Assembly: GCA_964584535.1 (NCBI GenBank)
Contig: CAZPAX010000002.1
Coordinates: forward strand, 1-33,356
Origin: an uncultured Eubacteriales bacterium
Lineage (GTDB): Bacteria > Acidobacteriota > Aminicenantia > Aminicenantales > CAZPAX01
Length of the DNA: 33,356 nucleotides
Direction: 5' to 3'
In this document: positions 5,397 to 32,307 of the stretch, piece by piece
How the letters are laid out: each line of letters starts with the position of its first letter
How positions within the stretch are numbered: the first letter of the stretch is position 1
Notes under the pieces: model-generated
Told to the model about the DNA's origin: nothing
What the model saw: only the letters and a program-made list of their open reading frames with translations
Databases searched by the model: none
Made by a program: the position numbers and the translations under genes

Positions 5397-5498
5397 TTCA
5401 CACAAGAATATATCTTGACTGGCAAAGAAATGTTAAGGCAGAAGCGCTGGTTTCTATGCACTTAAAAAAGGGTTTGGTTACTATGCTGACTCAGAAGG

Positions 5499-5756
5499 CT
5501 ATTTATATATTCCCTCTCTTGGTCCAAAAGAGAAAAAAATGAGGGCTTCTCTTTCTTTCTTATAAATCACTCTTCTTGTCTGTCCTTGGACTGTATAGCC
5601 AAACGACCTCAGCTCCTTGAATTCCCCCTTTAGCTTTTTCCCTGCTTCTGGATTATCTATAATTTTTAAAATGGCCTCCTTCAATGCCTCTTTTTCAAGA
5701 TTGCTTTTAATCTTTTTTCTTAATTTTCTGAATTTAGATGTTTCAACCAGCCTCAT
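5499..5756 (-). CDS. RelE/ParE-superfamily type II toxin
   Basis: 85 aa and basic, ending in RRVIYKKEREALIFFSFGPREGIYK, a tail typical of RelE/ParE-like toxins. Its ATG directly abuts the stop of the upstream small RHH gene (TAGATG at 5754-5759). Confidence 0.7.
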   Translation of the reverse strand: MRLVETSKFRKLRKKIKSNLEKEALKEAILKIIDNPEAGKKLKGEFKELRSFGYTVQGQTRRVIYKKEREALIFFSFGPREGIYK

Positions 5757-8942: not shown

Positions 8943-11285
8943 ATGAGGAAAAGAAAAAGATTTTTTCTTCAAACTTTTCTCTTTTTCTTACTTTTGACTT
9001 TAGTCAAACTCCAGGCTATCTGGGCTTTTGATTTCACTTACAGTGGCCCTGATTGCACCATCATTTACCGCTTTTCCCCTTCAACAGGGACTCTATCCGA
9101 TCTGAGGGTGATTTATAACCAGAGTTTCTCTTTCCTGCCTTCCAATTATGGAGGGATAACTCTTTTTTCCTTGGGAGGATCTCTTCTACGTCCTCGGGAA
9201 GGAAAGCAGGCGACAAAAGTCCTGGAGGAGACAAATTCCGGGGGAATTTATACAGCAAAATTCAGATGGACTTATAATGGGGAAAACTTTGACTTTGCAG
9301 TGAGTCTTCAGCTTTCAGGGAAAACTCTCAAAATAGAATATTATGCGGATCCTTTAAGCCAGAATGTCCTTGAGTTCAGTCTGGAGAGGACAGAGAAAAC
9401 TCCGGATCCGAAGGTTGTGGAAATGCCTTACGGCCACAATGTTCTTTTCACAAATGGAATTTTTATTTCTGCTATTTTAGATAGCGAGCTTTCAAATTCC
9501 TCGACGCTTTCACCCCTTAAAACTCGCTTCTCTTCTTCATCTGCATCTTTTGCTTATGCCTCCACTTACCGCCAGCTCACTGACGGAAGAAGAAACGCTC
9601 TCCAAGAGACGGTTCACCTGACTGTTTCACCTAAGATCGAGGATGTCTTTTTCAGAGTCTTGAATCCTGTCTCACCTTATAGAAAATTTTTGTCGAACAG
9701 AGTGATTCTTGATCTCTGGCGGAAGTCTTTCGCCGACTGCAAAAATGACCTTGAACTTCTTTCCTCATTTGGGATGAGAGACCTTTTTTCAATCATCCAT
9801 GTCTGGCAGAAATATGGTTATGATGATGGGCTTCCCTCCACCTATCCTGCTGGAAATGCCTACGGTGGAGATTTGGCTCTCCGAGAAGTTTCGGATCTTT
9901 GTCTGAGGAATGGATATCTATTAGCCCTCCATACAAACTATGTTGACTTTTATCCGAACTCTGATGTCTGGACTCCATCTGACCTTGCCCTCGAACCTAA
10001 TGGAGCCTGGGTCAAATCTTGGTATAATCTCTGGACTGGCACCCAGAGCTATTTGATGAAACCTTCCCGTGCTCTCTACTATTCTCAGATGTATGAGCCT
10101 TCTATCCATGATTCTTACAGCACGACTGCTTCCTTTCTCGATGTCCATACAGCTATCCTTCCTTCCTTCAAGGTTGATTATGACAGCCGGATTCCGCAGG
10201 CAGGAAAACAGAAAGAGACATTCCGCTATTATAAAGAACTTCTTTCTTATGCCCGCAATCTCCATGGAGGCCCTGTGGCTGGAGAGGGATATGGCTATTC
10301 CACAAGCACCTGGGCAGGATATGTGGATGCCATGGAGGCAGACCCCAGGTCTCTTTTTGATTCCTCGAGATTCAGGAGTGGAGCTCAAGTCCCTATTCTT
10401 GTTGATTATAAGCTGAAGGCACTGCACGGCCTTTTTGTCCCTCATGGAGCAGGCTATCTAGAACGGTTTTATCTTGATAAATTCAGCAATTACGAGGACT
10501 GGGAGCTGGAAAGATACAGGGCCACAGAAATCGCTTTTGCCAATGCTGGATTCATTTCAAACTCTTTTGACAAGGGCATATCCCTCCTTGAAGTCTTGCG
10601 GGACTATTGTTTCTTGAAACATCTTCAGTCTTATTATCTCGATGCAAGCCCCTTGGAGATACTCTACAATGTGCGAGGAGCGATGAAACCTCTTTCAGAG
10701 GCTTTGCAGGAAATTTTGCCAGGCTTATCTTTTAACAGTGTCGACGATGTCTTGCTTGAAGAGCTGGCCATGGTCAAGGTGACTTATGACAATGGCTTTG
10801 TCCTTTATGTCAACCGCTCACAGTCTGTGTCTTGGAGTGTTATTGAAGGAGGGACAAGTTACCTGCTCCCTCCAGGAGGATTTCTGGCTAGAAAAGGGAA
10901 TGAGTTTCTCGCCTATACAGCGCTGGTCAATGGAGTCAAAAGCTATTATCTCTGGCCTGCTGAAGGACCCTGTCTTGGCAACCTAATTGATATCATTTAT
11001 TCTCCTCTGAATTTTCAGGGGAAAAAAGTTATGAATAGGTCTCTTTTTCAGCTGGAATACATCAATATCCTGGCTTGGGAAGCCAATCCCGCCAACAAAA
11101 ATATCGCCAAATACAGGATTTACCAAGTGGAAGAAAAGCAGAGGATTTTCCTGGCAGAAGTCGATTCGAGCATCCTCAGCTATTGGCACCGCAAGGTGGA
11201 GAAGACAAAGCTTTACAATTACGCTTTGGTTGCTGTTAATGATGAAGGTAGAGAAGGACAGTTAGCTTTGCTCGCCGTCCAATGA
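8943..11285 (+). CDS. Secreted protein of unknown function (780 aa) with C-terminal Fn3-like domain; candidate novel glycoside hydrolase
   Basis: Signal peptide MRKRKRFFLQTFLFFLLLTLVKLQA. The central region shows barrel-like strand ends (HVWQKYGYDDG, ALHTNYVDF, ASFLDVHTA, GPVAGEGYG). The C-terminus (YRIYQVEE...YNYALVAVNDEGREG) looks Fn3-like. The gene follows the GH3 gene on the same strand. Confidence 0.8.
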   Translation: MRKRKRFFLQTFLFFLLLTLVKLQAIWAFDFTYSGPDCTIIYRFSPSTGTLSDLRVIYNQSFSFLPSNYGGITLFSLGGSLLRPREGKQATKVLEETNSGGIYTAKFRWTYNGENFDFAVSLQLSGKTLKIEYYADPLSQNVLEFSLERTEKTPDPKVVEMPYGHNVLFTNGIFISAILDSELSNSSTLSPLKTRFSSSSASFAYASTYRQLTDGRRNALQETVHLTVSPKIEDVFFRVLNPVSPYRKFLSNRVILDLWRKSFADCKNDLELLSSFGMRDLFSIIHVWQKYGYDDGLPSTYPAGNAYGGDLALREVSDLCLRNGYLLALHTNYVDFYPNSDVWTPSDLALEPNGAWVKSWYNLWTGTQSYLMKPSRALYYSQMYEPSIHDSYSTTASFLDVHTAILPSFKVDYDSRIPQAGKQKETFRYYKELLSYARNLHGGPVAGEGYGYSTSTWAGYVDAMEADPRSLFDSSRFRSGAQVPILVDYKLKALHGLFVPHGAGYLERFYLDKFSNYEDWELERYRATEIAFANAGFISNSFDKGISLLEVLRDYCFLKHLQSYYLDASPLEILYNVRGAMKPLSEALQEILPGLSFNSVDDVLLEELAMVKVTYDNGFVLYVNRSQSVSWSVIEGGTSYLLPPGGFLARKGNEFLAYTALVNGVKSYYLWPAEGPCLGNLIDIIYSPLNFQGKKVMNRSLFQLEYINILAWEANPANKNIAKYRIYQVEEKQRIFLAEVDSSILSYWHRKVEKTKLYNYALVAVNDEGREGQLALLAVQ

Positions 11286-29343: not shown

Positions 29344-29389
29344 CGTTTTACCTCCATTTTAATTTTCCCTCTTCATAGACTGCCAGATA

Positions 29390-29418
29390 CTTATAGCATG
29401 GCAAAGATTGGCTGTCAA
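29390..29418 (-). promoter_or_regulatory. Sigma-70-type promoter for the S15 peptidase gene (TTGACA-N17-TATAAG)
   Basis: On the minus strand, TTGACA is at 29418-29413, the spacer is 17 nt, and TATAAG is at 29395-29390. This is about 47 nt upstream of ATG 29343. Confidence 0.55.
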
Positions 29419-29420
29419 AA

Positions 29421-29738
29421 TTATCTGAGGAAAGGAGCGAATCCCTTTTCTTTCTCCTTGCGCCAGGGAAGAATGAAGGCGCTCATGTCATGTCCAACTC
29501 TAGAGGCAATGGCTGTTGATGTCCTGGCAATTGTCAGGAAGCCGGGCTATTCGATTGAAGAATATTTGTCAAGCTCCGGGCTCCTAGCTTGGGCGAGTGT
29601 CATGAATACAGAAATGATCAATCCTTCATAGCTCCGGCCAATGCGGTGAATGATTTCTTCTTTCTCATATCCTCGGGGCTTAATGATCTGATACCGAATC
29701 AAATTTCTAAGACCTTGGCCAAAAGCTATTCGTTCCAT
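29421..29738 (-). pseudogene. TAG-interrupted 105-codon ORF whose last 15 codons are homologous to the 3' end of the AstE-like gene; probable gene remnant
   Basis: The track ORF 29547..29738 (63 aa) continues in the same frame past its TAG (29547-29549) for 41 more codons: ...PGFLTIARTSTAIASRVGHDMSAFILPWRKEKEKGFAPFLR, ending at TAA 29421-29423. Nucleotides 29425-29468 match 31041-31084 at 38/44. There is no SD, and its ATG overlaps the lipoprotein gene end by 13 nt. Confidence 0.4.
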
Positions 29739-30559
29739 TTAGACAAAAATAACAGCTCTGGCCATTGGCTAGTTTGACCTTCCGCCAATTTAACGATGGC
29801 CCAGATTTTGAGGCCTTCAGGCATTTGTGGCCCCCTTCCGAATCCGCCCATTCCTCCCCGGCCAGGCACCCCGGCCATCGGAGGTCTGCCGCCACCAGGC
29901 ATTCCGCCTGGACGCCGGGACATCTTGCCAAGATCGAGTTTTCCAGTTTCAAATCCTACCCCAATTTTCTTCCCCGGCTCAGCAGCCAAAGCAATAGGGT
30001 GCTCCTCTGTTGGGAGGAGTGGTATTTTGAGTTCATAAACAAGCATCCCGGTCGATGGCAGGGCTTTGATCTCGATCCCTTTTGCCTCAGCGATATTCAT
30101 TTTTTGGGGCTCTTCCTTTTCTGATCGGATGATCTCCAACTCTGTCATAGTCCCTCCGGGAACATTCTCAAGTCCCGGCTCCTCTTGATCCTCTCTCCAA
30201 GGCATGGGCCGCTCGGCCGCAGGCATGCCCAAGGGAAATTTGATCCCCAAGGCCTTCTTCTTTCCTCCTTGTGGATCAAACCAGACAGTCAGGCCCTGCA
30301 TCATGATCTGGTTCCGCGTAAAATTGTTTTCGGCGAGAAGGCAGACATAGAGATTTTCCTGATCATTCAGGAATCCAAGAGAGACTCGCTCGTTCTCAGC
30401 AATGTACAATTCTCCTCGCCAGTCATCGCTCTTCCCATCGATAATGATCTGGTGATCTGGTAACCGGCTATCCGTCAAAAAGGTATTGAATGTGCTGCAG
30501 CCGGCAAGCCCTAAGCTCAGGAGCAACAACAAAGATACTTTTTTTAAAATCGGATTCAT
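29726..30559 (-). CDS. Lipoprotein of unknown function with a Gly/Pro/Met-rich C-terminal segment
   Basis: Start at MNPILKKVSLLLLLSLGLAGCS (lipobox LAGC) with GGAGGAAGAC immediately upstream. The low-complexity segment is RRPGGMPGGGRPPMAGVPGRGGMGGFGRGPQMPEG. Confidence 0.8.
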   Translation of the reverse strand: MNPILKKVSLLLLLSLGLAGCSTFNTFLTDSRLPDHQIIIDGKSDDWRGELYIAENERVSLGFLNDQENLYVCLLAENNFTRNQIMMQGLTVWFDPQGGKKKALGIKFPLGMPAAERPMPWREDQEEPGLENVPGGTMTELEIIRSEKEEPQKMNIAEAKGIEIKALPSTGMLVYELKIPLLPTEEHPIALAAEPGKKIGVGFETGKLDLGKMSRRPGGMPGGGRPPMAGVPGRGGMGGFGRGPQMPEGLKIWAIVKLAEGQTSQWPELLFLSKWNE

Positions 30560-30580
30560 GTCTTCCTCCATTCCTTAAAA

Positions 30581-30598
30581 CCAAGGAAAACTCCTTGG
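30581..30598 (-). terminator. Terminator/attenuator-like hairpin about 10 nt upstream of the lipoprotein RBS
   Basis: CCAAGGA (30581-30587) pairs with TCCTTGG (30592-30598) around a 4-nt loop. The minus-strand RNA reads CAAAAAAUAUUC-hairpin-UUUUAAGGAAUGGAGG. A U/A-run flanks it on both strands. Confidence 0.35.
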
Positions 30599-30809
30599 GA
30601 ATATTTTTTGCCTATTCCTTGAGCTAGTCGTCTTTTTTCTTTAATTTAAACTTTCGATTTTTCTGAATAGTTGCAAAATAGATTTGCAGGCATAGATCAT
30701 TCAAAAAATATCAAATAAGATTATCAAGGCGCAACCTTCACCTGAGCACTAAAAAGGAAGTAGCAAAACGTTGGGGAGCGAAGGCAATAATTCATGTGAA
30801 ATCCAATAT

Positions 30810-30937
30810 TGGGCGGGATGGATGCCGCCCTGAAGCCCCCGTAGCGGAGAGGGGGCCCATCGGCTTCTCCGATGGGGGGAACCGACGGGACTGGTTCCCT
30901 CGGGGTCCGGGGGCTAGAGGCGGCTTCAGCCCGCCCA
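30810..30937. ncRNA. Candidate structured RNA (family and strand unassigned): GC-rich three-segment stem capped by two tandem hairpins
   Basis: About 74% GC by hand count (93/126 over 30811-30936) inside an AT-rich gap. Watson-Crick helices: 30810-30817/30930-30937 (8 bp), 30824-30829/30919-30924 (6 bp), 30834-30841/30908-30915 (8 bp), hairpin 30856-30863/30869-30876 (8 bp, loop CUUCU), and hairpin 30877-30883/30893-30899 (7 bp, loop GACGGGACU). Confidence 0.45.
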
Positions 30938-31015
30938 TAGAATTTAACTTCATTTATTACCTTGAAATGAGTAGCTGCGCAGTACCCCCTAAAGATTTGC
31001 TGCTTCCACTAAAAA

Positions 31016-32161
31016 CTACTTCTTGGTTTTATTGGGAGACCTTAGAAACGAAGCGAGTCCCTTTTCTTTCACCTTGCGCCAGGGTGGGATATTTTCTATT
31101 TCAATTGTCTTTTGGGGTTCGATCTCGGCAAAGCTTTTAAGAAGTGCTTCTACGGCTCCGAGATGGCGGGCAACGCGGAGCTTAAGAGGGACTCCCTCTT
31201 CTGGGTAGGGGACAAAGAGCCAGCCAAGCTTTGCAGCCTTAGTATAGTTTTTATCCTTTCCATCGACGATCAAAGAAGGAGAAGTTTTTCCTTTGAGCCG
31301 GCCATGGGAAGCATTGGGGGTTTCGAGCAGAACGACTTTAATTCCAGCATGGTCTCCCCACTCCCTGTGGCTTAAGCCGCGAAGGTTTGTCGGTGAGGCT
31401 TCAAGCCGAAACTCAAGCCCTTCCACCTGAAGCTCCATCTGGGCTAGGGCAGCCAGCTCAGCGCTATTTTCATGAAAGACAATGGCATTGATGACAGGGT
31501 ACTCTGGAGCAGACTCATGGAGATCAAGGCCTAAGTCAATTTTCTCTTCCTTTATCAATTCCATGATGGCGTAGGCCACCTTTTCTGTTAAATAACCTTT
31601 TTTTCTTCCAGGATAGCAGCGATTGAGATTTCGAATTTCTGAGCCTGTTAGGTTTTGGCCAGCCGGGTTTCGATACATAGTTGGATCGGGCCATTGGTGG
31701 ACAGGATTGGTCAGTCGCGATCCGAGCCGAAACCACCTTCTTCCACTTTGCGCTTCAAGAAAATATCTCTGAGGACTTCCTTCCTGCGGGTCGCTATGGC
31801 TGAAGCCGCTCGAATTGGCCCTTGGAATAATAACCACTTTTCCCCTTTTAACCTGAATATTTTCAATCAAAAGAACAGCCGTCACAAATCCTGCTGGTTC
31901 ATTGGGATGGGTGCCACCCAGGATAAGAAGATTTCCTCCTTCTTCCCGGCCCTCGAAAAAGTAGACCTCTGTATCTCCTCCTCTATTTTTCAATCTGGGG
32001 AAGTAGTCGCTCAGCATTTTCTGGGAAGAAAGAGCGGAACTCGGAAAAATCGGCTCTTTCTGACGCATGCTCAAGAATCTAAGACCAGAGAAAAAACAGA
32101 TGATAAGAGTCAAAAGGAAGAGAACCGATCCTGAAATTGCATTCTTTTTTAAAGTCTTCAT
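31016..32161 (-). CDS. Succinylglutamate desuccinylase/aspartoacylase (AstE/AspA) family zinc deacylase, membrane-anchored
   Basis: N-terminal TM anchor. GGTHPNEPAG carries the HxxE zinc motif typical of this M14-related family, followed by DLHES. Length is 381 aa. Confidence 0.75.
   Translation of the reverse strand: MKTLKKNAISGSVLFLLTLIICFFSGLRFLSMRQKEPIFPSSALSSQKMLSDYFPRLKNRGGDTEVYFFEGREEGGNLLILGGTHPNEPAGFVTAVLLIENIQVKRGKVVIIPRANSSGFSHSDPQEGSPQRYFLEAQSGRRWFRLGSRLTNPVHQWPDPTMYRNPAGQNLTGSEIRNLNRCYPGRKKGYLTEKVAYAIMELIKEEKIDLGLDLHESAPEYPVINAIVFHENSAELAALAQMELQVEGLEFRLEASPTNLRGLSHREWGDHAGIKVVLLETPNASHGRLKGKTSPSLIVDGKDKNYTKAAKLGWLFVPYPEEGVPLKLRVARHLGAVEALLKSFAEIEPQKTIEIENIPPWRKVKEKGLASFLRSPNKTKK
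31041..31084. repeat. 44-nt repeat, second copy at 29425-29468 (38/44 identical)
   Basis: CTTAGAAACGAAGCGAGTCCCTTTTCTTTCACCTTGCGCCAGGG versus CTGAGGAAAGGAGCGAATCCCTTTTCTTTCTCCTTGCGCCAGGG. The flanking sequence on both sides shows no comparable nucleotide similarity. Confidence 0.7.
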
Positions 32162-32163
32162 TT

Positions 32164-32307
32164 TTATTTAATCAAAAAGAGACGGAGCAAAAATAGGACT
32201 AGGACAAGAATAGTGTTCACTTGGTTCCAGAATTTTTTCTCACGAAAAAGATAATAAATAAAATTCAATGTTAAATAAAGGACGAGAATTTGGTAGATAA
32301 TCTGCAT
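32164..32307 (-). CDS. Possible 47-aa two-TM small membrane protein (below the ORF-track cutoff)
   Basis: MQIIYQILVLYLTLNFIYYLFREKKFWNQVNTILVLVLFLLRLFLIK. GAGGA sits 5 nt upstream of ATG 32307. The ORF fills the gap between the DctM-type stop (32316) and the AstE-like start (32161) almost exactly. Confidence 0.4.
   Translation of the reverse strand: MQIIYQILVLYLTLNFIYYLFREKKFWNQVNTILVLVLFLLRLFLIK

Follow-up and report, generated by a model that had tools for sequence, protein, structure and literature searches.

The GC-rich island that lies between an AstE-like gene and a lipoprotein gene in the 33,356-nt stretch of DNA analysed here (hereafter the window) is very probably the conserved apex of a non-autonomous, MITE-type mobile DNA repeat. 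The element that contains it is small and non-coding (251-252 bp), carries terminal inverted repeats and is flanked by a target-site duplication, for which an empty site was found in a related locus. As judged from sequence comparison, it is one copy of a large, dispersed and unnamed repeat family of the Aminicenantes, a phylum that to our knowledge has no cultured representatives. The preliminary description had presented the island as a candidate structured RNA, possibly a regulatory element of one of the adjoining genes. A conserved, highly base-paired element was confirmed by our analysis, the regulatory link to a gene was not, and the pairing that reaches outward into the flanks had been overlooked.

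The AstE-like gene (31016-32161, Pfam PF24827) and the lipoprotein gene (29726-30571) are co-directional on the minus strand and are separated by a gap of 444 bp. Within the gap, positions 30810-30937 have a GC content of 72-74%. In 100-nt windows, the segment 30806-30944 is one of just two places above 68% GC in the 33-kb window, and its peak of 0.74 against 29-39% in the flanking windows bears out the GC-rich island in an AT-rich gap that had been described. The sequence from 30800 to 30947 was predicted to fold with -85.1 kcal/mol on the plus strand (z -4.3) and -78.3 kcal/mol on the minus strand (z -4.5), and none of 200 dinucleotide shuffles was as good for either strand. The 8-bp hairpin, the 7-bp hairpin and the segmented long stem that had been drawn by hand were all recovered. 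The pairing extends past 30810 and 30937 into the AT-rich flanks, and the entire 252 nt from 30756 to 31007 forms a single end-to-end hairpin under DNA parameters (z -5.8). When the whole window was searched against Rfam 15 at the gathering level, no match to the island was obtained, and a permissive search of the gap (E up to 10) gave unrelated sub-threshold matches, the best at E of about 0.65, in agreement with the earlier view that the island belongs to no known RNA family.

Several other readings of the island were considered. The coding reading of two ORFs across it (53 and 114 aa) was dropped, as neither has a Pfam match and the lengths are variable; the length of the core is indivisible by 3 in most copies of the family, the three classes modulo 3 counting 38, 21 and 20. 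An integron attC site was dropped because no GTTRRRY core sites were seen by eye and a cassette array is absent. A search for an intrinsic terminator, as a hairpin with a T/U run, found no terminator-like site on either strand of 30756-31007. No promoter-like site was found in the window copy of the element, and BLAST detected no further copy elsewhere in the window. The sole other island above 68% GC (29809-29938) is part of the lipoprotein gene, where it specifies a low-complexity stretch rich in Gly, Pro, Arg and Met, GGMPGGGRPPMAGVPGRGGMGGFGRGPQMP. Between the gene for a DctM-like permease and the AstE-like gene, a hydrophobic ORF of 47 aa (32164-32307, minus strand) probably encodes a real small membrane protein, because a gene of the same size was called at the equivalent position in the loci L001, L002, L004 and L206.

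The insertion was recognised by comparison with L206 (reads SRR22388255), the nearest informative homologous locus, in which the AstE protein is 90% identical, the same lipoprotein gene lies downstream and the element is absent from the gap. L206 aligns with the window on either side of 30756-31009, and in BLAST its two flanks meet with an overlap of 6 nt. At the target, L206 has a single TTTTTACT against two occurrences of TTTTTAGT(G) in the window, so that the L206 gap holds an unoccupied target site. An empty site with one copy of the repeat indicates that the window carries a transposon-type insertion. The inserted element is an imperfect palindrome of 251-252 bp at 30756-31006/7; it is assigned to the minus strand, on which the core reads 5' to 3', and this orientation is set by the asymmetry of the core. 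The terminal inverted repeats (I1; 21 nt, 81% complementary) are GGAAGCAGCAAATCTTTAGGG of the minus strand on the AstE side (30987-31007) and GGAAGTAGCAAAACGTTGGGG of the plus strand on the lipoprotein side (30756-30776). The target-site duplication is an exact 9-nt direct repeat (D2), located at 31007-31015 on the side of the AstE stop codon (CACTAAAAA on the plus strand, TTTTTAGTG on the minus strand) and at 30747-30755 on the lipoprotein side (CACTAAAAA, plus strand). In L001 (ERZ27245483), where AstE is 99% identical, the element occupies the same site and has an additional module of about 115 nt within hairpin 2, and the contig ends there. L002 (AstE 85% identical) has neither the element nor the lipoprotein gene. 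The lipoprotein gene (29726-30571) is itself variable among close relatives, as seen when window positions 29344-31015 are set against L002:3658-3804: in L002, AstE leads straight to an X-Pro dipeptidyl-peptidase gene across an AT-rich gap of 147 bp, and in L003 (AstE 75% identical) lytB follows AstE.

The conserved GC-rich region (30810-30937), represented by covariance model R1, consists of two outer stems and a core on the minus strand. Outer stem Pa pairs 30930-30936 with 30811-30817, outer stem Pb pairs 30919-30924 with 30824-30829, and the core of about 80 nt (30835-30914) is a three-way junction. In minus-strand order, the outer stems are followed by the inner stem (GCCCCCG at 30908-30914 with CGGGGGC at 30835-30841), which encloses two hairpins. 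Hairpin 1 (30877-30899) has 7 bp, GGGAACC with GGTTCCC, and a 9-nt loop, AGTCCCGTC. Hairpin 2 (30856-30876; inverted repeat I14) follows directly and has 8 bp, its arms CCCATCGG (30869-30876) and CCGATGGG (30856-30863) being joined by the loop AGAAG. After it come the unpaired 3' junction strand (30842-30855), which is CCCCCTCTCCGCTA in the window and nCCCCCCTCCGCTA in the family consensus, and the closing strands. The core is asymmetric because of this conserved unpaired strand, and model R1 scored the window at 127.3 bits on the minus strand (E 6e-35) and at 16.2 bits on the plus strand.

The structure is supported by the family alignment. Among 100 model hits, the columns of the core are 80-99% conserved and those of the unpaired strand 90-99%, against 30-70% in the outer stems; both the C-rich 3' junction strand CCCCCCTCCGCTA and hairpin 1 lie in the range of 80-99%. 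Trimming of the alignment of 79 copies to its conserved, paired part left the window with exactly 30810-30937, the boundaries that had been proposed from the window alone. In this alignment, 87.5% of the cells are paired and both sides change in 22 of the 37 pairs; none of 500 shuffles reached the observed values, and slid partners were only 40-55% paired. The covariation thus agrees with the proposed helices as real structure, and the hairpin architecture is maintained by compensatory changes. The inner stem occurs in compensated variants (GCCCCAG/CTGGGGC, GGCCCGC/GCGGGCC and CATGGCG/CGCCATG). Hairpin 2 is the variable one: across copies, G-C is swapped for A-T, whole stems are replaced and the length ranges between 7 and 28 nt. 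Hairpin 1 is nearly invariant, and the exceptions found with the model, a compensated GAAACC/GGTTTC and one replaced loop, are both in L161; its conservation is inflated, because the copies were collected by an exact 21-mer inside this hairpin. Likewise, the conservation of CCGCTA in alignment A4 was raised by the alignment filter and still holds in the model-based set. On the plus strand, GTAGCGG is conserved beside the palindrome, and one class has ATAG in place of GTAG.

The 21-mer used as the query, GGAACCAGTCCCGTCGGTTCC (30878-30898, minus strand), was found exactly in at least 120 metagenome contigs, and the copies number 127 in total among the matches listed. Some contigs have three or four copies, as in L161; in L111, four core elements at different stages of decay stand in tandem at 10678-11234 with a period of about 145 nt. 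About 30 of the 127 copies are found no more than 170 nt from a contig end, which makes the repeat a frequent assembly breakpoint in Aminicenantes metagenomes; L088, L122, L127, L132, L136, L137, L163, L165, L167 and L185 are among the contigs in which this was seen. Viral contigs gave no match, either to the core or to the end pattern. The same outer ends occur in L001 (two copies), L009, L132 and L190, and the terminal inverted repeats are conserved in L001, L009 and L190. L009, from a different species (AstE 71% identical), has a full copy between different genes. The second copy in L001 is a short, core-less one upstream of a gamma-glutamyltranspeptidase gene. The hosts identified as Candidatus Aminicenantes are the window, L009 and the 66%-GC locus L121, in which the protein adjoining the copy has its best hits in Aminicenantes. 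The host contigs have 41-66% GC, which is the range of the 80 Aminicenantes genome loci. Among the 80 AstE loci of species-representative Aminicenantes (1.34 Mb), the covariance model found a copy in one and none in the other 79; nhmmer on the 80 Aminicenantes loci gave matches in L001 and L009 only, apart from a weak match in L032 that was judged to be noise.

The same core is carried in outer shells that differ in sequence, in their ends and in the type of duplication. A shell of about 199 bp has the ends (C/T)TAATA...TATTA(G/A) without a long flanking repeat, and looks, by analogy, like elements that target TA, of the IS630/mariner type. The G(T/G)AAGCA-type shell has the ends G(T)AAGCATCTCC...GGAGATGCTTCC, and five of its 15 scored copies are flanked by 9-bp repeats that agree at 9 of 9 positions (L188, L125 and L198) or at 8 of 9 (L092 and L148), the null rate for at least 8 being 0.2%. 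The shell of the window, with ends GGAAGCA... and a duplication of 8-9 bp, is related to this type. The end motifs of the family are GTAAGCATCTCCGTTTGTGTGATT, GGAAGCAGCAAATCTTTAGGGGG and CTAATATCAACGCAATAAAT. Similarity between shell classes fades gradually from the apex outward, with no single sharp boundary. Core-less short forms exist in two shell types (L186:4120, 84 bp; L144:10681, 92 bp; L001:137-290). They retain one GGGCGGC...GCCGCCC arm that belongs to the core-bearing form, and so appear to have arisen by deletion from one arm to the other, with the reverse direction also possible.

In other copies, one of the two hairpins or the junction strand is broken by extra structured modules of about 90-230 nt; at hairpin 2, this was seen in L001, L097 and L132. 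Where an interruption could be bridged, it adds about 60-150 nt, so that the gap to the 3' junction motif is 91-181 nt compared with about 30 in intact copies, and a type C insertion in L149 was estimated at about 230 nt. Large cargo was looked for in the interrupted copies and not found, and none of these insertions has an ORF. Type A, another structured repeat, about 115 nt long (...CCAGGGGG....CCCCCTGGTCGCAGG...CCGAGAAGGGGAGGCAG...TTGGAAGGGG...CCCCTCCAA), is nested inside hairpin 2 at L132:48-166, L097:6886-6993 and L001:5522-5571 and stands alone at L048:4073-4156 and L157:282-372. Type B, a third nested module, contains GGAGGGGGTAGGGGGTGG and was seen in several shell types (L117:3000-3122, L148:1359-1481, L195:2243-2357 and L196:9403-9477); the interruption starts within hairpin 2, and a second CCTCCG is part of it. 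L087, L203 and L178 are interrupted in a related way after CCTCCG. The loci with nested modules of types A and B had no relevant match in Rfam. L157 also has a near-perfect AT-rich palindrome of about 90 nt at 5427-5519, which matched the plant family MIR405 of Rfam below threshold on both strands (44 bits; gathering score 102); it is unrelated to the repeat and is probably another small inverted-repeat element of the same genome.

These results show that, in the window, the palindrome of 251-252 bp has inserted directly behind the stop codon of the AstE-like gene and has duplicated 8-9 bp of the target. For its movement, the following model is proposed. A transposase acting in trans would recognise the terminal repeats and make a staggered cut, which would fit the 9-bp duplications seen in five of the 15 G(T/G)AAGCA-type copies scored. 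We can only infer mobilisation in trans, because no autonomous element, as a matching pair of ends enclosing a gene, was found in the 2.3 Mb of collected loci. The core may be kept as a service to the element itself or as a carried module, and would most plausibly act as a folded single strand or as a protein-binding platform. We infer that it has no role specific to the genes of the window, and the local effect of placing a very stable hairpin between two co-directional genes is likely incidental. The conserved part speaks against a simple MITE, as it is the centre (80-99%) and not the arms (30-70%), the reverse of a typical MITE, and simple end recognition by a transposase does not explain a common core in shells with unrelated ends. 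The family is also patchy, with a copy in just one of the 80 representative loci. The candidate reasons for the conservation of the core are a requirement for mobility in cis, a function of its own as RNA or folded DNA, and invasion of palindrome tips.

The alternatives to the MITE model differ in how they account for the core. The preliminary description had suggested that the island could act as a cis-regulatory RNA, be it as a riboswitch or leader (lipoprotein gene) or from the 3'-UTR (AstE-like gene), and it does lie between both genes with its core oriented in their direction of transcription. This reading is effectively refuted: L206, with a single target copy, and L002 lack the element, and absence from homologous loci had been named in that description as a ground for refutation. 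In addition, more than 120 other copies have unrelated genes as neighbours, all four orientation contexts are represented, and Rfam holds no match. The contexts were divergent for 20 copies, co-directional for 16, convergent for 14 and anti-directional for 9, as called by a crude ORF heuristic that also placed 26 copies 'inside' spurious ORFs running through the GC-rich element, and no clear orientation bias relative to genes was seen. When the ORFs within 4 kb were clustered, no recurrent neighbour such as a transposase, RAYT or integrase emerged; the top clusters were histidine kinases, response regulators, kinases, radical SAM enzymes and peptidases, the largest being a generic histidine kinase at 6 of 120 loci. 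Together, the unoccupied site at the orthologous locus and the missing association with genes rule out the riboswitch, leader and 3'-UTR roles. It is rather improbable that the core is instead a functional structured RNA (an sRNA, a protein-binding RNA or an undescribed ribozyme) under selection at the RNA level and spread by the shells. The excess of conservation in the core over the arms, the compensatory changes and length variation of hairpin 2 and the inner stem, which are typical of functional RNAs, and the asymmetry given by the unpaired strand (127 against 16 bits) would suit such an RNA, which would be new given the empty Rfam search. However, the wobble pairs have no strand bias, with 86 forward G-U against 116 A-C (G-U on the opposite strand), the copies have no clear orientation bias to genes, the window copy has neither promoter nor terminator, and the shells are too variable for a shared promoter. 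That the repeat carries an independent small RNA is thus possible, although these data lend it no support.

Another reading, which we consider unlikely, is that the core is itself mobile and invades the tips of pre-existing palindromes, so that unrelated MITE shells would have acquired it independently. The occurrence of one core in shells with different ends and duplication types, the core-less short forms (L186:4120, L144:10681 and L001:137-290) and the nesting of other small modules at the apex, of which type A also occurs alone (L048, L157), are all compatible with it. On the other hand, the gradual fading of similarity from the apex argues against a sharply bounded unit, the short forms with one GGGCGGC...GCCGCCC arm look like arm-to-arm deletions, and the core has no flanking insertion signature. 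Elements of the REP/REPIN type, which a RAYT or an IS200/IS605-like tyrosine transposase moves in the form of folded single-stranded DNA, resemble the family in being long hairpins with conserved sub-hairpins. In REPs, GTAG adjoins the palindrome, as the conserved plus-strand GTAGCGG does here, and compensatory upkeep of the hairpins would fit a single-stranded intermediate. That origin is nevertheless very unlikely, since the window and five of the 15 copies with related shells have duplications of 8-9 bp, which do not arise by that mechanism, GTAG is replaced by ATAG in one class, and none of the ten most recurrent neighbour gene families is a transposase. More generally, it would be a possible but doubtful proposal that the core of about 80 nt, with its inner stem, an invariant hairpin (GGGAACC-AGTCCCGTC-GGTTCCC), a second hairpin that varies and the unpaired CCCCCCTCCGCTA, is a self-contained module (an undescribed catalytic or protein-binding RNA, or a tip-invading unit) that at least two transposition classes of shells acquired independently.

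In annotation, the label appropriate to this region, and to over 120 similar ones, is that of a mobile repeat and not of a putative riboswitch. With about one copy in four at a contig end, the repeat is also a cause of breaks in Aminicenantes metagenome assemblies. The family is unusual among small bacterial repeats in that the core is nearly constant while the stems, the ends and the apparent type of transposition change. If the core acts as RNA or as folded DNA, it would represent a new class of modules carried along by transposons.

Among the small bacterial repeats reviewed by Delihas, Correia/NEMIS of Neisseria, RUP of pneumococcus and ERIC of enterobacteria are treated as MITEs (PMC2229807). 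The present elements share with bacterial MITEs that they are small, non-coding, intergenic and dispersed, that they have terminal inverted repeats and a target-site duplication, and that they form a long stem-loop. Longer variants of ERIC arise by internal insertions, and longer variants arise in the same way here. In contrast to those MITEs, conservation is highest not at the ends but at the apex, an asymmetric three-way junction, and one and the same apex is found in shells that differ in their ends and in duplication length. The core is rich in GC, whereas AT-rich sequence is usual in those elements, and no cognate insertion sequence was found in the 2.3 Mb of loci. BOX and BIME are modular, as is this family, in which the core, the shells and modules A, B and C combine variously. 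BOX and BIME are not known to have target duplications of the kind found here, and the present family differs from them in this respect. REP/REPIN elements with RAYT are likewise multicopy, hairpin-forming, GC-rich extragenic palindromes, whereas the present element has a target-site duplication, is much larger and had no associated RAYT gene in the loci seen. RUP is mobilised by IS630 and has TA at both ends (PMC2229807), a feature shared by one shell type here. The CIR repeats of Caulobacter and Brucella are intergenic and have a predicted structure that exposes a strictly conserved GANTC in a loop (PMC2229807). The present family is also an intergenic repeat that exposes a conserved short unpaired motif, which differs in being CCCCCCTCCGCTA together with the loop AGTCCCGTC in a three-way-junction architecture. 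Our search of the literature on Aminicenantes with MITE or structured RNA found no description of these repeats; the family itself is new, its kind is that of the known MITE-like palindromic repeats of bacteria, and it is atypical among them in its conserved structured apex and modular nesting.
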